Assembly (NCBI RefSeq): GCF_000189295.2
Contig: NC_016803.1
Span: 1,890,001-1,922,000 of the forward strand
DNA length: 32,000 bases
Source: Pseudodesulfovibrio mercurii
GTDB lineage: Bacteria; Desulfobacterota; Desulfovibrionia; Desulfovibrionales; Desulfovibrionaceae
Direction of reading: 5' to 3'
Part shown: positions 1 to 23,044 of the stretch, one piece after another
Numbering within the stretch: position 1 is the first letter of the stretch
Layout of the letters: each line of letters begins with the position of its first letter
Position numbers and translations under genes: made by a program
The notes under the pieces: model-generated
What the model saw: the letters and a program-made list of their open reading frames with translations, nothing else
What the model was told of the DNA's origin: nothing
The model's database searches: none

Positions 1-2
1 AG

Positions 3-317
3 CAGCTCGAAGGCTACTTCCAGGACAAGGAAGCGTCCCCGATCCGCGTGTATCTCGCGGCCGGCGGCTGAGCGGGCCCGCGCCTGACCCTGGCTCTGGA
101 TGAGCCTAACGATATGGACGACGTGTCCGAGGCCGGTGGATTCACCTTCCTCGTGGAAAAGGACCTGCTGGCCCAGACCGGCGATATCAGAATCGACATG
201 ACCTACTACGGATTCGTCGTGGAGTCCCAGAACCCGGTCAGCGGCGGCGGCGACAGCTGCTCCTGCTCCTCCTCGGGTTCCTGCTCCTCCGCAGGCTCCG
301 GCGGCTGCGGCTGCTAG
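3..317 (+). CDS. HesB/IscA-like (A-type Fe-S carrier fold) selenoprotein. The 5' end is truncated by the window edge (about 10 codons missing). The in-frame TGA at 69-71 is read as selenocysteine.
   Basis: The frame starting at nt 3 is open to the TAG at 315-317 except for the TGA at 69-71. The translation QLEGYFQDKEASPIRVYLAAGG-U-AGPRLTLALDE aligns residue for residue with ELTKYFEDKDVQPIRVHLADGG-C-AGPRLSLALDE of the paralog at 895..1215. Similarity continues on both sides of the TGA. The C-terminus ends in CGC, like the IscA C-G-C motif. Confidence 0.8.
92..106 (+). promoter_or_regulatory. Candidate SECIS-like recoding hairpin: GGCUC-UGGAU-GAGCC.
   Basis: It is a 5-bp stem with a G-containing 5-nt loop. 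The loop starts 26 nt after the UGA. The equivalent codons in the Cys paralog (GGCCCUGGACGAGGU) cannot form this hairpin. The self-complementary GCGGGCCCGC at 72-81 is also unique to the Sec copy. The structure is small and was not scored with a model. Confidence 0.35.
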
Positions 318-361
318 CCGCCAGCTGCCGATACGACGCCATCCGCTGCGTTGCTGCAAAA

Positions 362-410
362 GGCCCGGACCCTCGCGTATGAAGATACGCTTCGGCCCCG
401 GGCCTTTTTT
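362..410 (+). terminator. Family A hairpin plus T-tract (copy A1). Probable intrinsic terminator of the Sec-HesB gene.
   Basis: GGCCCGG (362-368) pairs with CCGGGCC (398-404). There is an inner stem GCGTAT/ATACGC, followed by T6 at 405-410. It lies 45 nt after the stop codon. Confidence 0.6.
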
Positions 411-473
411 GCGCCTTGCGGCTGACGCCGTCTCGACAGCTGGCTCTCGCACGTTGAGGCGGTAAGAAAAAAT

Positions 474-523
474 GCCCGGACTGTTGCGTATGTTTTGATA
501 CGCTTCGGTCCCGGGCTTTTTTT
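474..523 (+). repeat. Family A hairpin plus T-tract (copy A2).
   Basis: GCCCGG...CCGGGC with inner stem GCGTAT/ATACGC and T7 at 517-523. It is followed by the shared tail GCGCCTTGCGGC. Confidence 0.6.
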
Positions 524-589
524 GCGCCTTGCGGCTCACCACTTCTCGCCAGCTAGCCCATCTCCCGCCAAGGGAATTGGGCGGGACGC

Positions 590-638
590 GCCCGGACCCT
601 CGCATATGTTTTGGTATGCTTCGCCCCCGGGCCCTTTT
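590..638 (+). repeat. Family A hairpin (copy A3) with a weaker T-tract.
   Basis: GCCCGG...CCGGGC. The inner stem is changed to GCATA/TATGC, a compensated G:C to A:T change relative to A1. It has the shared tail GCGCCTTGCGGCTGACGCCGTCTC. Confidence 0.55.
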
Positions 639-894
639 GCGCCTTGCGGCTGACGCCGTCTCACGAGTTGGGCCATTTCCATTATATAAAATCGGGCGAG
701 GCGGGGTGCGGGCGGTCGTTCGCCTGGTTGCGGCTTGGGGCGAGCGGATTTCCGGGGATGAAATTTCAGATTTTTTCAGTCGGGATTACGGCGGGTTGGG
801 GCGGCCGGATCGGGTTGTGCATCGTTTTTCTCTTTACATCGGATAGATGATCCTTATTGTCTTGGGGAACGAACCCCATCCAGGAGAGAATCAT

Positions 895-1215
895 ATGATC
901 ACAGTTTCCGAATCGGCCCAGAATGAACTGACCAAATATTTCGAGGACAAGGACGTGCAGCCCATCCGGGTGCACCTGGCCGACGGCGGTTGCGCCGGTC
1001 CGCGCCTGTCCCTGGCCCTGGACGAGGTGCGCGAAGGCGACAAGTCCGTGGAGCAGGGAGCCTTCACCTTCCTGATCAACGAGGAACTGGCCCAGGCCTC
1101 GGGCGCGGTCTCCATCGACATGACCCCCTACGGCTTCCAGGTCTCTTCCGAGAACCAGATCGGCGGCGGGGGTTGCGGATGCTCCTCCTGCGGCACCGGC
1201 TCCTGCGGCTGCTAG
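895..1215 (+). CDS. HesB/IscA-like protein. This is the cysteine paralog of the upstream selenoprotein, with a Gly/Cys-rich C-terminal tail.
   Basis: ATG at 895 is preceded by AGGAGAG at 882-888. The product is 106 aa: MITVSESAQNELTKYFEDKDVQPIRVHLADGGCAGPRLSLALDE...GGGGCGCSSCGTGSCGC. Cys33 is encoded by TGC at 991-993. Confidence 0.85.
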   Translation: MITVSESAQNELTKYFEDKDVQPIRVHLADGGCAGPRLSLALDEVREGDKSVEQGAFTFLINEELAQASGAVSIDMTPYGFQVSSENQIGGGGCGCSSCGTGSCGC

Positions 1216-1253
1216 GCCGCGATAAGCGGCGATCCGCTGCGTTGCTTCAAAAA

Positions 1254-1301
1254 GCCCGGACCCTCGCGTATTAAGATACGCTTCGGTCCCGGGCTTTTTT
1301 T
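1254..1301 (+). terminator. Family A hairpin plus T-tract (copy A4). Probable terminator of the Cys-HesB gene.
   Basis: It has the same architecture as A1: GCCCGG...CCGGGC followed by T7 at 1295-1301. The upstream flank ATCCGCTGCGTTGCT is shared with A1. Confidence 0.6.
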
Positions 1302-1510
1302 GCGCCTTGCGGCTGACGCCGTCTCGCCAGCCAGCCCATCTCCCGCCAAGGGGATTGGGCGGATCGCGTCGGGGACGCCCGCAGTCGCGGGCTGTCGACG
1401 TCATCGGATCGGGAAAGGCAAAAAGCCGCCAGGAATCTTTCCATATAAAAAGCGAAACACCATATCGCGTTTCGCTTTTCAAACGGAAAACCACACCCCA
1501 CCATCCCCCA

Positions 1511-1834: not shown

Positions 1835-3073
1835 TTAATCGAAAGTCCTTTCATCGACGAGACGAGGGGCGTTCTCAGGCAGGGTGCCGGGGACGCAGGT
1901 CTCGACGACTGGTCGCAGTTTCATCGTGGCCTGGAAGTCGGCCTCGAAGCTTTCCGTATCGAAAGGCTGCGCCGTTTCCGCCACAACCACGAGTACGTCC
2001 CTGCCACTAACATGTTTCACCCGTATTTGCCAGCCTGAAATGGCCGGGTATCGTGAAAAGACGGTCGCGGCCTGGCCCGGATAGATGAACTGGCCCTTGA
2101 CCTTGGTTGTGTCGTCGGCCCGCCCTTTCCATCCGGTAAGCTTTCTGGCCGTGCGGCCGCAGGCGCAATGGCTCAGGTCCATGGACGACAGGTCGCCCGT
2201 GGCCAGGCGGACCAGCGGATAGTCGGTGAAGAACGGGGTGACCACCACCTCGCCCACCTCGCCGTCGGGCACGGGCAGCCCGGTGGCCGGGTCGCAGATC
2301 TCCACGTGCCGGTAGTTGGACAGGTGCATGCCGCCCAGTTCGCGGCACTCGTAGGCGATGCAGCCCACGTCCGCCGTGCCGTACCCCTGGCGCACGGTGA
2401 TGCCGAACATCTCCTGCACCTCCCGGCGCAGGCTCTCGGGCAGGGGCTCGGCCGCCACGTAGGCCTTTTCCAAATGGAAATCCGCCAGCGGGTCGAGCCC
2501 CAAGGCCACGGCCTTCTCGCCGATGACCTTCAGGTAGCTGGCCATGCCGATGAAGGCGTTGACCGGCAGCTCGGTCAGGAACTCGATCTGCTTCTCGGTG
2601 TTGCCCGGACCGGCCGGGATGACCGCGCAGCCGATGTCCCGGAGCGGCTCCTCCAGCATGAGCCCGGCCGGGGTCATGTGGTAGGAAAAGGTCATCTGCG
2701 CCAGGTCGCCGGGCCGGAACCCGGCCGCGAAGAACCCCTCGGACCAGGCCCAGTAGTCCGGCTCGCGCCCCTCGGGATCATAGATCGGGCCGGGCGACTG
2801 GTAGATGCGCCGCAGTTCGCCGGGCCTGCCGTTCAGGAACCAGCCGATGCCGTGCTCCCGCTGCCACTCAATGAGGTCCTTCTTGCGCAGGGGCGGAATC
2901 TTGGCGTAGTCGTCCCAGTCCTTGAAATCGCGCGCGCACGCTCCCAACGCCCCCAGCCGCTCCCGGAACTCGCCAGACCCGGCCTCGGCCGCCGCGAGCA
3001 CGTCCTTCACGCCCTTCCACTTGCGCTTCATCCGCTTCTCGCGCGGCTCCGTCTCATACTCGGTGTAGTACAT
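1835..3073 (-). CDS. Phenylacetate-CoA ligase family (PaaK-like) adenylate-forming enzyme.
   Basis: 412 aa, with typical PaaK-like motifs (YQSPGPIYDP, GYGTADVG, KVKGQFIYPGQ). GGGAGG lies 8 nt upstream of the ATG. Confidence 0.8.
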   Translation of the reverse strand: MYYTEYETEPREKRMKRKWKGVKDVLAAAEAGSGEFRERLGALGACARDFKDWDDYAKIPPLRKKDLIEWQREHGIGWFLNGRPGELRRIYQSPGPIYDPEGREPDYWAWSEGFFAAGFRPGDLAQMTFSYHMTPAGLMLEEPLRDIGCAVIPAGPGNTEKQIEFLTELPVNAFIGMASYLKVIGEKAVALGLDPLADFHLEKAYVAAEPLPESLRREVQEMFGITVRQGYGTADVGCIAYECRELGGMHLSNYRHVEICDPATGLPVPDGEVGEVVVTPFFTDYPLVRLATGDLSSMDLSHCACGRTARKLTGWKGRADDTTKVKGQFIYPGQAATVFSRYPAISGWQIRVKHVSGRDVLVVVAETAQPFDTESFEADFQATMKLRPVVETCVPGTLPENAPRLVDERTFD

Positions 3074-3221: not shown

Positions 3222-3343
3222 GGCCTGGAAGAGTGGGTCAGCTGTGCATTTTTCGAGGGGAGATTTGACCGCAGTGTACTCTTCCGTACATGAGGATCAA
3301 ATCCCCCCTCGGAAAATGTGCAGATGGCCCGCTATCCCAAGCC
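3222..3343 (+). repeat. Family B long hairpin element (copy B2).
   Basis: The outer arms are nearly identical to B1. The second stem has a different sequence (CGAGGGGAGATTTGA with TCAAATCCCCCCTCG, 14 of 15 paired). The apical hairpin is changed to TGTAC/GTACA. The element ends 2 nt before the livF stop codon. Confidence 0.7.
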
Positions 3344-3344
3344 G

Positions 3345-4145
3345 CTACCCGAGCCAGCGCTTTCTTCTTCTGTAGTGTTTGACGTCGCGGTAGCTCTTCT
3401 TGTCCCCGGCGCTGCCCATGCCGAGGTAGAATTCCTGGACGTCCGGGTTGTCGAGCAGGTCCCTGGCCGTGCCGTCCATAACCACCCGGCCGTTCTCCAT
3501 GATGTAGGCGGTCTCGGCCACGGACAGGGCCGCGCGGGCGTTCTGCTCCACCAGCAGGATGGTCACGCCCTCCTTCTCGTTGAACCGCTTGATGATGTCG
3601 AAGATTTCCTCCACCAGAAGCGGGGCCAACCCCAGCGACGGCTCGTCGAGCAGAAGCAGCCTCGGCTTGGCCATGATCGCCCGGCCGATGGCGCACATCT
3701 GCTGCTCGCCGCCGGACATGTAGCCCGCCAACTGCCGCCGCCGCTCCTTGAGCCTCGGGAAATAGTCGTAGACCAGGGCCAGGGAGTCGCCCATCTCCGA
3801 ACCGGGCCGGGTGAACGCGCCGCAACGCAGGTTCTCCTCCACGGTCAGGTCCTCGAAGATGCGCCGCCCCTCCATGACCTGGAACACGCCCCGGCGCACG
3901 ATCTTCTCCGGCACCAGCCCCTGGATGGGCTGGCCGCGGTAGACCACCGCCCCGTCCGTGACCTCGCCGTCCTCGCACTGCAACAGGCCCGAAATGGCCT
4001 TCAGCGTCGTTGACTTGCCCGCGCCGTTCGCCCCGAGCAACGCCGTGATCCGCCCCTCGGGACAGGCCAGGGACAAGCCCTTCAGGACCAGGACCACGTC
4101 GTTGTACACCACTTCCAGGTTCTCGACTCTCAGGATATCGTTCAA
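3345..4145 (-). CDS. livF: Branched-chain-amino-acid-type ABC transporter ATP-binding protein (LivF-like).
   Basis: 266 aa, with Walker A GANGAGKST and signature SGGEQQM. TTG start, with GGAGG 4 nt upstream. Confidence 0.8.
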   Translation of the reverse strand: MNDILRVENLEVVYNDVVLVLKGLSLACPEGRITALLGANGAGKSTTLKAISGLLQCEDGEVTDGAVVYRGQPIQGLVPEKIVRRGVFQVMEGRRIFEDLTVEENLRCGAFTRPGSEMGDSLALVYDYFPRLKERRRQLAGYMSGGEQQMCAIGRAIMAKPRLLLLDEPSLGLAPLLVEEIFDIIKRFNEKEGVTILLVEQNARAALSVAETAYIMENGRVVMDGTARDLLDNPDVQEFYLGMGSAGDKKSYRDVKHYRRRKRWLG

Positions 4146-13241: not shown

Positions 13242-15917
13242 TCAGCCGCCCATGCGCCGGAAGAGCGGGGCCTGGGCGCAGCAGCCCGACAGCCCCAGGG
13301 CCCGGTAGACCGCGTCCATGTCCACGGCCTCGCGGACCACGGAGGCCAGGTTGTCCAGGGCGTCCTCCAGGCCGAAGACGGTCTGGACCGTCTCCAGGGG
13401 CGAGAGCCCCTTGTCCATGCGCAGCTGGTCGATGAACCAGCGGCGGAACCCGTCCGCGTCGAACAGCCCGTGCAGGTAGGTGCCGAGCACCCGCCCGTCC
13501 GGGCGCATGTAGCCCAGCGGCTCGCCCGCGTTGTCGCGCAGGGCCGTGCGCAGCTCCCCGGACAGGGGTTCGGTGCGGCCGTGGTGGATCTCGTAGCCGT
13601 GCACGGCGAGCCCCGAGGCCGAGTGCGTGCCGAAGGTCCGGGTCAGGGTCTTTTCCGGGGCCAGGGTGGTCTGGACCGGCAGCAGGTCGAAGCCCTCCAC
13701 CCGGGTGGTCTCGGACTCCAGGCCGTAGGGGTCGTCCACGATGCGGCCGAGCATCTGGAACCCGCCGCAGATGCCCACGATGCGGGTCCGGCCCTCGGCC
13801 AGCCCGCGCAGGACCGCGGCCATGCCCGTGCCCTTGAGGGCGCGCATGTCCGGCACCGTGGACTTGGAGCCGGGGATGATCACCGCGTCGGGCGCGCCCA
13901 CGTCGCGGGCGTCGGCCACCACGCGGACGCGCACGTCCGGCTCGCGGTACAGCGGGTCGATGTCGTTGAAATTCGAGATGCGCGGCAGGTCCAGGACCAC
14001 CACGTCCACGCAGTCGGCCTCGGGCAGCTTGTCGCCCTCGGGCCGGAACCCCTCCTTGAACGAGACCGAGTCCTCCTCGGGCAGGCCGAGCCCGTGGATG
14101 TACGGCACCGTGCCCAGGACCGGCTTGCCCGTGCGCTCGAACATCTGGCCGAAGGCCGGGTCGAGGAGCGAGGCGTCGCCCCGGAAGCGGTTGATGACGT
14201 AGCCCTCCACCAGGGAGCGCTCTTTCGGCGTGAGCAGACTCATGGTCCCGACGATGGAGGCGAAGACCCCGCCCCGGTCGATGTCGCCGGTCAGGAGCAC
14301 CCGTGCGCCCGCGTACTCGGCCATGGCCATGTTGACGATGTCGTGGTGCTTGAGGTTGACCTCGGCCGGGCTGCCCGCCCCCTCCAGGACCAGGACCTCG
14401 TGCTCGTTGGCCAGGGAGTCGTAGGCCGCCTTGACCGCGTCGAAGGCGCGCGGCTTGTACTCCACGTACTCACGCACGCTCATGTTGCCCACGGGCCGCC
14501 CCATGACGATGACCTGGGAGCCGGTGTCCGAGCCGGGCTTGAGCAGAACCGGGTTCATGCGCACGTCCGGGTTCAGGCGGCAGGCCATGGCCTGGGTCAC
14601 CTGGGCGCGGCCCATCTCCCCGCCCTGGTCCGTGACGTAGGAATTGAGCGACATGTTCTGGGCCTTGAACGGGGCCACGTCGAAGCCGTCCTGGAGCAGG
14701 ATGCGGCAGAAGGCCGCCGCCAGCACGGACTTGCCCGCGTTGGAGCTGGTCCCCTGGATCATCAGGGCCGGGGTGCGGCGGACGCGCCGGACCACAGGGC
14801 CGCGCGCCGTGCCCGCCACCGCCTCCATGGCCCGGATCAGGGTCTCGTTGTCCTCGCGGTTGCGCACGGCCACCCGGAACCAGCGGTCGTCCAGGCCGGT
14901 GTAGTTGCCGCACAGCCGGATGCCGATGCGGTGCTCCCGGAGCAGCCGCTCCCACAGCGAAACCGCGTCCCGCCCCACCCGTTCCACCCGGCAGAGAAGA
15001 TAGTTGGCCGCCGACGGCAGGACCCTGATCCCCGGCACCTGCCTGAGCCCCGAGGCCAGGGACTCGCGCAGAAGCCGGGTCTGCTCGCGGGTCTCGGCCA
15101 GGTAGAGGGCGTCCTTCAGGCAGCGCTCCCCGACCTTCTGGGCCAGGGCGTTGACGGACCAGGCGGGCATGTTCCGGCGGATGCGCGGGATCACGTCCGG
15201 GTCGGCGAAGGCCAGCCCCAGCCGCAGGCCCGGAATGGCGTAGGTCTTGGTCAGGGAGAGGACGGTGATGACGTTGGACGGCCGGTCGCGGGTCAGCCGG
15301 TCCGCGTCCTCGGGCAGAAATTCGGCAAAGGACTCGTCCACCACGAAGGTGGACTGGGGGAACATGGCCGCCACCTCGCGCAGGTCGTTGGCCGGGACCA
15401 TGGTGCCCGTGGGGTTGTTGGGCGAGCACAGGAAGACCAGGGAGGGCGTGGCCAGGAGCGGCCCCATGGCCGGAAAATTCACGGTGAAGTCGTCGTTCAG
15501 GGGCGGCTCGACCACGGGCAGCCGGTGGGCGCCGCACCCCCTGGCGTAGTCCACGTAGGTCGGCGCGGGGACCACCGCCTGGCGGAACCCCCTGAGCCCG
15601 GCGATGGCGAAGAGCAGTTCGGACGCGCCGTTGCCAGCGACCACCTGGGAGGGCCAGACCTTGTAGCGCTCGGCGGCGGCCATGACCAGCCCGGTGCAGT
15701 CCGAGTCCGGGTAGGCGTCCACCCCCTGCAGGGCCTGGCCGACCACCTGCCCGAGCCACTTCGGCGGCCCCAGCGGGTTCACGTTGGCCGAAAAATCGAG
15801 GATCTCGTCCGGCGCGCACCCGGCCGTCTCGGCCATGCGCCGCCGGTTCCCTCCATGGACGAATCTCCGCTCGTCCAGCACCTCGGGTATCCCCGCGAAA
15901 AGATTCTGCTTATCCAT
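13242..15917 (-). CDS. cobQ: Fusion of a CobD-like threonine-phosphate decarboxylase (class I/II aminotransferase fold) with cobyric acid synthase CobQ/CbiP.
   Basis: 891 aa. The N-terminal ~365 aa are aminotransferase-like ([26 protein letters not shown]). The remainder is CobQ-like ([12 protein letters not shown], and a GATase part with ICGGFQMLG). Confidence 0.8.
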
Positions 15918-16147: not shown

Positions 16148-18169
16148 ATGTGGAAACGCGCGGTCTGCACCAAGGACTGTCCCGACACCTGCGGCCTGCT
16201 GGTCAAGGTGGAGAACGGCAGGATAACCTCGGTCAAGGGCGACCCGGACCATCCCTACACCCGGGGGTTCCTCTGCGGGAAAGGGGCGCGGTTCCCGGAG
16301 CACGTGCACGGCGCGGCCCGGCTGACCACGCCGCTCAAACGCACCGGGCCCAAGGGCAGCGGCGCCTTCGCGCCCATCTCCTGGGACGAGGCCCTGGACG
16401 AGGTGGCCGCCAACATCCGGCGGGTGGCCGACGCCTACGGGCCCGAGGCCATACTGCCCTACACCTACGCCGGGCACATGGGCATGGTCCACCGGTACGC
16501 GGGCCACGCCCTGTTCAACAAGCTCGGGGCCAGCCGCCTGGACGCGACCATCTGCGGCCCGGCGGCCACGGCGGGCTTCAAGGCCACCCTGGGCAAGGGC
16601 CCGAGCACCGAGATCCAGGAGGCGGCGCAGTCCGACCTTGTCGTCATCTGGGGCAACAACACCCTGGTGACCAACGTCCACGCCTGGCCGCACTTCCTCA
16701 AGGCCCGCAAAAACGGCGCGAGGATCATCGTCATCGACCCCTACCGCAACGCCACGGCCCGCGAGGCGGACGCGCACCTCATGCTCCGGCCCGGCACGGA
16801 CGCGGCCCTGGCCCTGGCCGTCATGCACGTGCTCGTCACCGAGGACCTCGTGGACCACGAGTTCATCGCGGCGCAAACCATCGGCTTCGACCGGCTCAAG
16901 GAACGCGTCCTGGACTGGCCGCCCGCCCGGGCCGCCGAAATCTGCGACCTGGCCGAGCCGGACATCGTCGCCTTCGCCCGCGCCTACGGCCGCGCCCGCG
17001 CCCCCTACATCCGCACGGGCTGGGGACCGGCCCGGCAGCTGGCGGGCGGCATGGCCATGCGGACCATCTCCCTGCTCCCGGCCCTGGTCAACGCCTTCGG
17101 CAAACCCGGCGGCGGCATCACCCGGTCCCTGGGCGGCGCGCCCGGCAAGGCCCCGTCCCTCATCCGCGAGGACCTGCGCCCGGCGGGCACGCGCACCGTG
17201 AACATGGTCCACCTGGGCCGCGCCCTGACCGAGCTCGCCGACCCGCCGGTCATGCTCCTCTACAACTACCTGTCCAACCCGGCGGCAGTGGCCCCGCAGT
17301 CGGCCCAGGTCATGGCCGGGCTGGCCCGCGAGGACCTGTTCACCGTGGTCCACGAGCTGTACATGACCGACACCGCCCGGTTCGCGGACATCATCCTGCC
17401 CGGCGCGAGCTTCCTCGAGGTGGGCGACATCTACCGCTCCTACGGCCACAACCACGTCCAGATCGCCCGGCCCGTCATCGACCCGGTGGGCGACAGCCGG
17501 TCCACCCTGGACATCTTCCAGGACCTAGCCCGCCGCCTCGGCTTCACCGAGGAGGTCTTCTCCCTGAGCGAAGCCCAGTGCATCGAGCGCATCCTGGACG
17601 AGGCCGACTCGCCCTATCTCGACGGCGTGGACCTCGACGCCCTGCGCCGGGGCGAGCCCGTGCGCCTGAACATCCCGGCCAACCCCTTTGCCGGCGGCTT
17701 CGACACCCCGTCCGGCAAGGTCGAGTGCTTCTCCCAATCCATGGCCGACCAGGGGCTCGATCCCCTGCCCGACGGCACGCCCGTGCGCGACCCCGAGGGC
17801 GGCGAGGAATACCCCCTCGAATACATCACCCCGCCCCACCCCATGCTGCTCAACTCCGCCTTTAACGAGATCGAGACCCTGCGCGAACGCATCGGCGGCC
17901 CCAAGGTGCTCATCCACCCCGCAACCGCCGCCGCGCGGGGCATCACCCAGGGCATGACCGTGCGCGTGTTCAACGCCCGAGGCCGGAACACCGCCCGGGC
18001 CGAGATCACCGAGGACACCCGGCCCGAGCTGCTTGTGGCCGAAGGGCTGCACCGGGTGGACGGCACCCCCGGCCAGGGCTCCAACCAGCTGACCAGCCAA
18101 CGCCTGACCGATATGGGCAACACCTGCGCCTTCCACTGCAATAAGGTCCAAGTGGAGCCTGTCGGCTAG
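16148..18169 (+). CDS. Molybdopterin (bis-MGD) oxidoreductase family protein. It has no Tat signal, so it is probably cytoplasmic.
   Basis: 673 aa. The N-terminal Cys cluster is C-x3-C-x3-C (CTKDCPDTCG), followed by FLCGKG. The layout is MopB-like, with a C-terminal beta-barrel region. Confidence 0.8.
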   Translation: MWKRAVCTKDCPDTCGLLVKVENGRITSVKGDPDHPYTRGFLCGKGARFPEHVHGAARLTTPLKRTGPKGSGAFAPISWDEALDEVAANIRRVADAYGPEAILPYTYAGHMGMVHRYAGHALFNKLGASRLDATICGPAATAGFKATLGKGPSTEIQEAAQSDLVVIWGNNTLVTNVHAWPHFLKARKNGARIIVIDPYRNATAREADAHLMLRPGTDAALALAVMHVLVTEDLVDHEFIAAQTIGFDRLKERVLDWPPARAAEICDLAEPDIVAFARAYGRARAPYIRTGWGPARQLAGGMAMRTISLLPALVNAFGKPGGGITRSLGGAPGKAPSLIREDLRPAGTRTVNMVHLGRALTELADPPVMLLYNYLSNPAAVAPQSAQVMAGLAREDLFTVVHELYMTDTARFADIILPGASFLEVGDIYRSYGHNHVQIARPVIDPVGDSRSTLDIFQDLARRLGFTEEVFSLSEAQCIERILDEADSPYLDGVDLDALRRGEPVRLNIPANPFAGGFDTPSGKVECFSQSMADQGLDPLPDGTPVRDPEGGEEYPLEYITPPHPMLLNSAFNEIETLRERIGGPKVLIHPATAAARGITQGMTVRVFNARGRNTARAEITEDTRPELLVAEGLHRVDGTPGQGSNQLTSQRLTDMGNTCAFHCNKVQVEPVG

Positions 18170-18175
18170 GGGGGC

Positions 18176-18296
18176 GGCTTCCGAGAGCGGCGCATCTGCA
18201 CATTTTTTCCAGGGGGCTTTCATCCTCACGTAGACGGCTACGCTGCGGTGAAAGCCCCCTGGAAGAAAATGCAAAGCTGCACCACTCTCGAAAGCC
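18176..18296 (-). repeat. Family B long hairpin element (copy B3).
   Basis: The reverse complement aligns with B1 and B2. The second stem is TTCCAGGGGGCTTTCA with TGAAAGCCCCCTGGAA, a perfect 16 bp of unrelated sequence. The core CCGCAGCGTAGCCGTCTACGTGAGGA is identical to B1. The element starts 7 nt after the oxidoreductase stop. Confidence 0.7.
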
Positions 18297-18325
18297 TATC
18301 CCGAGGACGCTTTGGCGGCTGAAGA

Positions 18326-18366
18326 GAGAGCCGCTGTCGGGTGGCTGCGCCACCCGAATCGCTCCA
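18326..18366 (+). repeat. Family C hairpin module (copy C2).
   Basis: GAGAGCCGCTGTCGGGTGGCTGCGCCACCCGAATCGCTCCA. The stem is GGGTGGC/GCCACCC, compared with GGGTGCC/GGCACCC in C1 and GAGTGCC/GGCACCC (one mismatch) in C3. Confidence 0.6.
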
Positions 18367-22423: not shown

Positions 22424-23044
22424 CTAGTTCAGCATGGTGCCGATGCGGTTGAAGCGGATGTCGGTCAGGGAGCCCCAGGACCAGTAGATGACCAGGGCCT
22501 TGCCCACGATCTTCTGGCGCTTGACCGGGCCCCACCAGCGGGAGTCGTAGGAGCCCTCGCGGTTGTCGCCCATGACGAAGTACGTGCCTTCGGGGACGAC
22601 CACCGGGCCGAAGTTGTCGCGCACGGGCAGGGTGTCCGCCTTGGTGTGCAGCACGTAGGGCTCGTCGAGCGGCTGGCCGTTGATGTAGACCACCTTGTTG
22701 CGCACCTCCAGGGTCTCGCCCGGCAGGCCGATGACGCGCTTGATGAAGTCCTTGGACTCGTCCTCCGGGAAGAGGAAGACCACGATGTCCCCGCGCTGCG
22801 GGTCGCCGGTCTTCATCAGCACCTTGCCGTCCGTGGTGTCCAGCCAGATGTCCGAGGGCAGGCGCACGTCGTAGGCGAACTTGGAGACCAGCAGGTGGTC
22901 GCCGATCTGGAGGGTGTCGAGCATGGACCCGGACGGGATCTTGAAGGCCTGGACGATGAAGGCGCGGATGATGAAGGCCAGCAGCAGGGCCACGACAATG
23001 GCCTCAAGGGTGTCACGAAACGATTTGAGCGAACTTTGAGTCAT
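22424..23044 (-). CDS. lepB: Signal peptidase I.
   Basis: 206 aa, with the catalytic-Ser motif IPSGSM and GDNREGSYDSRWWG. Confidence 0.9.
   Translation of the reverse strand: MTQSSLKSFRDTLEAIVVALLLAFIIRAFIVQAFKIPSGSMLDTLQIGDHLLVSKFAYDVRLPSDIWLDTTDGKVLMKTGDPQRGDIVVFLFPEDESKDFIKRVIGLPGETLEVRNKVVYINGQPLDEPYVLHTKADTLPVRDNFGPVVVPEGTYFVMGDNREGSYDSRWWGPVKRQKIVGKALVIYWSWGSLTDIRFNRIGTMLN

Follow-up and report, generated by a model that had tools for sequence, protein, structure and literature searches.

The 32,000-nucleotide stretch of the Pseudodesulfovibrio mercurii genome analyzed here (hereafter the window; contig NC_016803.1, positions 1,890,001 to 1,922,000) opens with two neighboring genes of the HesB/IscA type, the first of which is interrupted by an in-frame TGA. 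P. mercurii is a mercury-methylating strain that was formerly named Desulfovibrio desulfuricans ND132. We are highly confident that the first gene (1..317) encodes a HesB/IscA-like selenoprotein and that its UGA at 69-71 is read as selenocysteine (Sec). The following features of the locus, which include a candidate selenocysteine insertion sequence (SECIS), are needed for the analysis below:

1..317, + strand: 3′ part (codons 11-114 and the stop) of the HesB/IscA-like gene that very probably encodes a selenoprotein; assigned by an open frame with a single TGA, by the NCBIfam model NF038090 and by full-length orthologs.
69..71, + strand: in-frame UGA, very probably Sec33 of the full-length protein, in the motif U-A-G-P; aligned to Cys33 of the paralog and to the ligand Cys of IscA-type proteins.
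92..106, + strand: candidate SECIS apical hairpin GGCUC-UGGAU-GAGCC, with a 5-bp stem and a 5-nucleotide loop; paired in 53/53 Sec and 0/41 Cys copies.
114..116, + strand: internal Met codon ATG, source of a call of 67 amino acids and not a start; Lys in orthologs and no Shine-Dalgarno sequence.
895..1215, + strand: Cys paralog of 106 amino acids, with the Cys33 codon TGC at 991-993; assigned by BLASTP, NF038090 and an IscA/SufA-like predicted fold.

A reading frame with a single TGA

Frame 3 of the forward strand is open from the start of the window to a TAG at 315-317, with the TGA at 69-71 as its sole interruption. Translation of 3..320 yields QLEGYFQDKEASPIRVYLAAGG, the internal stop, and then AGPRLTLALDEPNDMDDVSEAGGFTFLVEK...GGCGC followed by the terminal stop; AGPRL comes directly after the internal stop. 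The mechanical list of open reading frames (ORFs) contains for this gene just 114..317, a product of 67 amino acids for which the protein collection holds no exact entry. An earlier note, made from the sequence alone, had described both the isolated 67-amino-acid call and the frame that runs open from the window start save for the TGA, and translation and ORF list agree with it on both counts. The span it proposed, 3-317, is correct as an open frame but not as the gene start, since the gene begins before position 1. Judged from relatives about 92% identical in DNA, ten codons (MIEVTEAARQ) are clipped by the window edge. The full gene has 114 codons, and the first 10 of them, start codon included, precede the window.

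We also scanned both strands of the window for comparable cases, defining a coding-like flank by a G+C content of at least 0.8 at third (GC3) and below 0.55 at second codon positions (GC2). The TGA at 69-71 is the only one with open, coding-like sequence on both sides. Elsewhere, TGA is an ordinary stop in 5 of 24 window genes, and the genetic code is therefore not reassigned.

The interrupted frame has an uninterrupted counterpart in the paralog at 895..1215. BLASTP aligned the Sec fragment with this protein at 54% identity over 79 residues (E = 5e-31), placing residue 1 of the fragment on residue 11 of the paralog and the TGA on Cys33, within GG-C-AGPRL. The homology of the 22 codons before the TGA to paralog residues 11-32, and the exact match of the TGA to Cys33, had been read from the letters by the earlier note and are both recovered in this alignment. 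The paralog is identical to EGB14910.1 / WP_014322338.1 of P. mercurii. The ORF list lets this gene begin at ATG 847 (122 amino acids). In homologs and in the public protein the start is ATG 895 (MITVSES...), with the purine-rich sequence aggagag ahead of it. Before the gene, at 833-860 and overlapping ATG 847, there is a promoter-like site (TTTACA-16-TATTGT).

Conservation of the TGA and selection on its two sides

Based on a genome scan and a metagenome scan, combined into a set of 89 loci in all, we compared the codon at the Cys33-equivalent site among relatives. In related genomes and metagenomes, 66 gene copies, which represent 53 distinct sequences, have TGA there and 70 have TGC or TGT; the TGA-bearing copies extend down to about 45% protein identity. 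The genome scan identified syntenic loci in P. karagichevae and D. caledoniensis, both with the tandem pair; their upstream copy retains the TGA, with MIEVTEAA.KQL.GYFQDKEASPIRVYLAAGG directly ahead of it and AGPRL... behind. The pair is likewise present in JGI contigs with about 92% DNA identity (loci L006-L009), where gene callers divide the upstream gene into ORFs of 32 and 64 amino acids. A protein search returned full-length Cys forms of 105-154 amino acids and, in addition, many “hypothetical protein” fragments of 58-78 amino acids that represent the 3′ halves of Sec forms. Truncated GenBank entries of this kind include PSDVSF_28900 (P. sediminis) and HFN16_03195 (Pseudodesulfovibrio sp. 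zrk46). Some gene callers elsewhere took a GTG as the start and not the equivalent of ATG114.

Purifying selection acts on both sides of the TGA and is strong upstream of it. Relative to moderately diverged orthologs, the 22 codons before the TGA show a synonymous divergence of 0.3-0.6 and a non-synonymous divergence of 0.02-0.04 (pN/pS 0.04-0.13, or 0.00-0.13 at a pS of 0.3-0.6), in agreement with the upstream protein conservation that had been anticipated for homologs. Downstream of the TGA, pN/pS amounts to 0.2-0.36, corresponding to a weaker constraint. This pattern is difficult to reconcile with a pseudogene, that is, with a duplicated HesB-like gene killed by a TGC-to-TGA nonsense mutation, whose 5′ part would be left without functional product. 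Although a functional Cys paralog 0.6 kb away would make such a loss tolerable and TGC differs from TGA by a single base, the TGA recurs in 53 distinct sequences whose protein identity falls to about 45%, neither half has lost the frame or escaped purifying selection, and a Sec-specific hairpin (see below) is kept at synonymous sites. A pseudogene is therefore very improbable.

The start site was examined in the same set of relatives. These carry an ATG 32 codons ahead of the TGA, behind a TAGGAGG at normal distance. In the window, no Shine-Dalgarno sequence is found upstream of ATG114, and the corresponding codon in orthologs is AAG or AAA (Lys), the Met being lineage-specific. ATG114 is thus not a start, in agreement with the earlier note, which had argued against initiation there. 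The same data bear on the view that the locus encodes two products, a 32-residue peptide ending at the UGA and a separate protein of 64-67 amino acids initiated at ATG114 or at a GTG close by. Such ORFs of 32 and 64 amino acids are indeed called by ORF finders and in public annotations, which also list short “hypothetical protein” entries of 58-68 amino acids. Apart from the unsuitable start, however, the two pieces always occur in the same frame and jointly cover full-length Cys homologs from one end to the other, and the C-terminal fragment alone would be devoid of strand 1, the helix and the ligand residue of the IscA fold. We consider two separate products highly unlikely.

The hairpin downstream of the TGA

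The hairpin GGCUC-UGGAU-GAGCC (92-106) begins 20 nucleotides after the UGA and is formed by the codons for A-L-D-E-P. At the protein level, 49 of the 53 Sec copies read L/M-ALDEP; in Cys copies, the last residue can be A, V, L or T. The earlier note had placed this hairpin at a plausible SECIS distance and reported its absence from the Cys copy, and the comparison of all copies supports it in both respects. The stem, located at +23..+27 and +33..+37 from the U of the UGA, forms 5/5 pairs in 53/53 distinct Sec copies, whereas the full five pairs are found in 0/41 distinct Cys sequences, which form one to four pairs each. In the Cys paralog of the window, the site reads GGCCC-TGGAC-GAGGT and is incapable of five pairs. 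A formal pairing count on 50 distinct sequences gave 100% of 250 cells for the proposed register and 13-50% when the 3′ arm was slid by 1-3 columns. In a 21-nucleotide context (89-109) the hairpin folds at -8.8 kcal/mol; the Cys copy reaches -5.7 kcal/mol with a mispaired alternative.

This pairing is not explained by amino-acid conservation, because synonymous sites (GCU, CUG) are fixed in the Sec copies. Fifty of the 53 Sec copies encode the Ala of the 5′ arm by GCU, despite their G+C-rich genomes; at the same position, Cys copies use GCC (28/41) and less often GCU (8/41). The Leu codon that provides the UG of the loop is CUG in all Sec copies, as opposed to CUC or CUU in 11/41 Cys copies. 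The three remaining Sec copies with GCC all have GGG in the opposite arm where the others have GAG; this compensatory change from U-A to C-G replaces Glu by Gly and appears in the formal count as the one pair changed on both sides. The SECIS constrains the encoded LALDEP peptide as well as the synonymous codons. These Sec-specific synonymous codon choices close to the TGA, together with the occurrence of the same TGA across isolate genomes and dozens of metagenome assemblies that are independent of one another, also make it extremely improbable that a sequencing or assembly error conceals a true TGC or TGT, even if the difference is one of a single base.

The bSECISearch model reportedly expects a distance of 16-37 nucleotides between UGA and loop. 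With a loop that begins 25 nucleotides after the UGA and contains GG, the hairpin fits the bacterial SECIS pattern of that model. Like the fdhF/fdnG-type SECIS elements of E. coli, it is located directly 3′ of the UGA inside the ORF, carries a G in the loop and constrains the peptide. It differs from them by a very short stem of 5 bp, with neither a conserved lower stem nor a bulged U in this lineage. Binding by SelB is a prediction.

Family membership, predicted fold and the selenocysteine trait of the host

The HesB-like selenoprotein family was reportedly described by Kryukov and Gladyshev in 2004. It is an established prokaryotic selenoprotein family characterized by the motif UxGP (PMC13188914), with members counted in D. 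vulgaris and D. desulfuricans (Zhang et al. 2006; PMC1794560) and in 86 organisms (Peng et al. 2016; PMC5029168), and the HesB-like selenoprotein of Methanococcus maripaludis has been confirmed by 75Se labelling (PMC11097638). The window gene is an ordinary member of this known family from an organism already surveyed for selenoproteins, and it is not novel. That the family itself was already established had been stated from the outset and is evident from NF038090 and PMC1794560. An alignment permitting U, as had been recommended, showed 61% identity between the window protein and the D. desulfuricans member already published (PMC1794560 supplement, VYLAPGGUSGPRLALALDEP...), the U of which coincides with the TGA site; downstream, both proteins have the LALDEP motif, whose codons form the hairpin. 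As in other HesB-like selenoproteins (UxGP), the predicted Sec of the window gene occupies the position of the first conserved Cys (U-A-G-P), and the gene resides in a Sec-utilizing sulfate reducer. Nothing essential sets it apart from them. Against NCBIfam NF038090 (IscA_HesB_Se, cutoff 85 bits), the Sec copy scores 97.7 bits with U entered as C and the sequence truncated by the window, and the Cys paralog scores 106.4; both pass. Against TIGR01911 (HesB_rel_seleno, cutoff 66.35 bits), neither passes (33.5 and 39.8 bits, respectively). The Sec copy, above the first cutoff and below the second, therefore belongs to the NF038090 branch, the Desulfovibrionales subfamily of the HesB-like selenoproteins; TIGR01911 stands for another, related subfamily. 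The paralog also passes the gathering threshold of Pfam PF01521 (Fe-S_biosyn; 36.8 versus 26.3 bits), for which the Sec copy, scored without its first 10 residues, reaches 18.1 bits.

An AlphaFold model of the Cys paralog (pLDDT 78, with the Cys-rich tail at residues 91-106 below 50) predicts an IscA/SufA fold. With this model, the best Foldseek matches in the PDB were 1X0G, 1R94, 2APN, 2D2A, 1NWB and 1S98 (probability 1.00, TM score 0.59-0.75); at the sequence level, similarity to canonical IscA is weak (PDB E-values of 6e-4 to 0.14). Sequence alignment to 1NWB, 2APN and 1X0G nevertheless places Sec33 on the first ligand Cys of A-type Fe-S carriers, which is where the earlier note had located the TGA. 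Within the tail, S-C-S-C is matched to the C-G-C of the same three proteins; this part of the alignment is weaker, as it falls in low-complexity sequence. The window proteins thus resemble IscA, SufA and ErpA (PF01521; 1X0G, 1R94, 1S98, 2D2A, 2APN, 1NWB) in the fold of the paralog model, the Sec/Cys33 ligand site and a C-x-C near the C-terminus. In contrast to these carriers, the Sec protein would contain selenium in place of sulfur at one ligand of a cluster whose binding is a prediction, and the window proteins end in a long Gly/Ser/Cys-rich tail of low confidence that has several C-x-C motifs instead of a single CGC. The most probable product is an Fe-S (or metal) carrier or transfer protein with selenium in the place of one sulfur ligand. 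In the literature, the function of HesB-like selenoproteins is termed unclear (PMC11097638).

Regarding the host, D. desulfuricans ND132 is listed as Sec-utilizing with 6 known selenoproteins (Peng et al. 2016, Table S2; PMC5029168), and Sec-utilizing bacteria are defined in that work by the presence of SelD, SelA and SelB. A search of the protein database with SelB of D. vulgaris (PMC1794560 supplement) as query returned at least 8000 candidates at E <= 1e-50. The best 120 of these all carry SelB-specific Pfam domains; those among the 120 with a named source come from Desulfovibrionaceae (Nitratidesulfovibrio, Bilophila, Desulfovibrio, Oleidesulfovibrio), and none among these best 120 of at least 8000 matches is named as Pseudodesulfovibrio. 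Judged by these domain-bearing matches, SelB appears to be widespread in Desulfovibrionaceae. We found nothing useful in the literature on selenocysteine or NiFeSe in Pseudodesulfovibrio; P. methanolicus is without [NiFeSe] hydrogenase, which is uninformative on the Sec trait. Within the window, a tRNA scan detected no tRNA of any kind, and no second selenoprotein was found among the window genes.

In some bacteria, cysteine is inserted at Sec codons under selenium limitation. This precedent, and the fact that the sel genes were not directly observed, could be taken to favor a readthrough of the UGA without selenocysteine, by near-cognate insertion of Trp or Cys or by a suppressor tRNA. Such a mechanism would account neither for a conserved hairpin at SECIS distance that is specific to UGA-bearing copies nor for the curated selenoprotein family to which the gene belongs (NF038090; PMC13188914), and it is further opposed by the listing of the strain as Sec-utilizing (PMC5029168) and by the use of TGA as terminator in 5/24 other window genes. 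We regard it as scarcely probable. On the conservation data, it was rejected along with the pseudogene, the dual ORF and the sequencing error.

By analogy to the standard bacterial pathway, decoding of the UGA as selenocysteine would proceed as follows. Translation would start about 30 nucleotides upstream of the window, and the ribosome would not terminate at the UGA at 69-71. Instead, the hairpin at 92-106 would act as a bacterial SECIS that recruits the SelB-GTP-Sec-tRNA(Sec) complex, leading to insertion of selenocysteine. In the resulting protein, Sec33 would replace the first cysteine in the conserved set of three that ligate the cluster in A-type Fe-S carriers, and the C-terminal Gly/Ser/Cys-rich tail would provide C-x-C motifs.

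Several observations weigh against a selenoprotein at this locus. No experimental proof of Sec insertion was found in the literature, either for this gene or for any bacterial ortholog. Gene annotation and tRNA scan revealed no selA, selB, selD or tRNA-Sec within the 32-kb window, and the Sec machinery of the host is taken from a published table. The N-terminus of the protein is known from relatives only, the first 10 codons of the strain itself being outside the window. For the 71-nucleotide region 60-130, the minimum free energy is no better than that of shuffled sequences (z = -0.03); the long-range pairs of this fold are unconserved, and therefore the apical hairpin alone is retained, which is also the sole element of the centroid fold. 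The stem comprises just five pairs without a lower stem in this lineage, other clades having 2-5 additional pairs or a bulged U. Covariation is thin, with one compensatory pair in three related sequences, so the signal consists mostly of synonymous-site invariance. The covariance-model check suggested for 60-130 failed to lend support: neither a gathering scan of the whole window nor a search at E <= 10 over 1-1400 gave a SECIS or any other credible match in Rfam, a negative result of little weight with the coverage of bacterial coding-region SECIS hairpins in Rfam not established.

The tandem Sec/Cys pair and its surroundings

Sec and Cys copies are adjacent in 41 of 88 loci, arranged as Sec-Cys (26), Cys-Sec (8) or Cys-Cys-Sec (7). 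This suggests that adjacent copies represent a conserved isoform pair and not a recent duplication, and the frequent side-by-side pairing might reflect selenium-dependent isoform use. In our reading, the paralog at 895..1215 is the cysteine isoform of the Sec gene, with its own transcription unit. Human-gut contigs with three gene copies are found among the loci with adjacent copies.

Both genes of the pair are followed by terminator-like repeats, and further genes of the window lie beyond them:

318..671, + strand: three tandem palindromic terminator-like repeat units of about 113 nucleotides, downstream of the Sec gene; identified by repeat families D1-D4 and RNA folds.
1216..1334, + strand: fourth palindromic terminator-like unit, downstream of the Cys paralog; 91% identical to 329-440.
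1835..3073, - strand: AMP-binding ligase, adjacent to the paralog; identical to EGB14911.1.
22424..23044, - strand: signal peptidase; identical to EGB14926.1.

Each unit of about 113 nucleotides is a long imperfect palindrome composed of an A-run, a GC-rich stem and a U-run. The units within 318-671 fold at -44 to -58 kcal/mol (z = -4.6 and -4.0 for the first two) and the unit at 1216-1334 folds at -59 kcal/mol (z = -5.8). The same repeat occurs behind Sec/Cys genes in loci L001, L002, L003 and L006, and it looks like a bidirectional terminator or an element of the repetitive extragenic palindromic (REP) type. A second intergenic repeat family is represented at 1599-1746, 3287-3355 and 18164-18366 of the window and at 5028-5211 of L006. 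Its copies are 77-93% identical, one of them inverted; they separate unrelated genes and have no Rfam match.

Further downstream, an 891-amino-acid ORF at 13242-15917 (- strand) joins class I/II aminotransferase, CbiA and GATase_3 domains, suggestive of a CobD-like/CobQ-like fusion for cobalamin synthesis. In relatives, the region upstream of the window contains CobT-like and HemC genes. The gene at 16148-18169 (+ strand) encodes a cytoplasmic-type molybdopterin oxidoreductase of 673 amino acids with an N-terminal 4Fe-4S domain; it contains no in-frame TGA and is not a Sec-containing formate dehydrogenase.

The arrangement of the pair, with a terminator-like repeat behind each copy and a promoter-like site ahead of the Cys copy, raises the question of a selenium-responsive isoform switch comparable to that of the Methanococcus Sec/Cys isogenes. 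Like the Sec/Cys isoform pairs of M. maripaludis (PMC11097638), a Sec gene and a Cys isogene coexist in P. mercurii. In contrast to them, the pair described here is known from its genes alone, and the HesB-like selenoprotein of M. maripaludis is not among the switched pairs described. We regard a switch as a speculative and rather unlikely possibility. If it were true, the Sec form would be the superior (or Se-delivering) Fe-S or metal carrier when selenium is available, and a role of the Sec/Cys-rich protein in handling Hg or Se would also be conceivable in this mercury methylator.

The practical value of the finding lies in annotation, as the gene is split or shrunk to a short “hypothetical protein” in many public records and comparison with the paralog inside the window suffices to recover it. 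It also provides a clean textbook case of a coding-region SECIS that constrains synonymous codons and amino acids alike. Knowledge of selenoproteins as such is unchanged: publications of 2004-2006 had already covered the family, the UxGP motif and the occurrence in Desulfovibrio, and NCBI provides a curated model. Experiments on HesB-like function could take as their starting point the conserved Sec/Cys tandem pair of this genetically tractable Hg-methylating strain.

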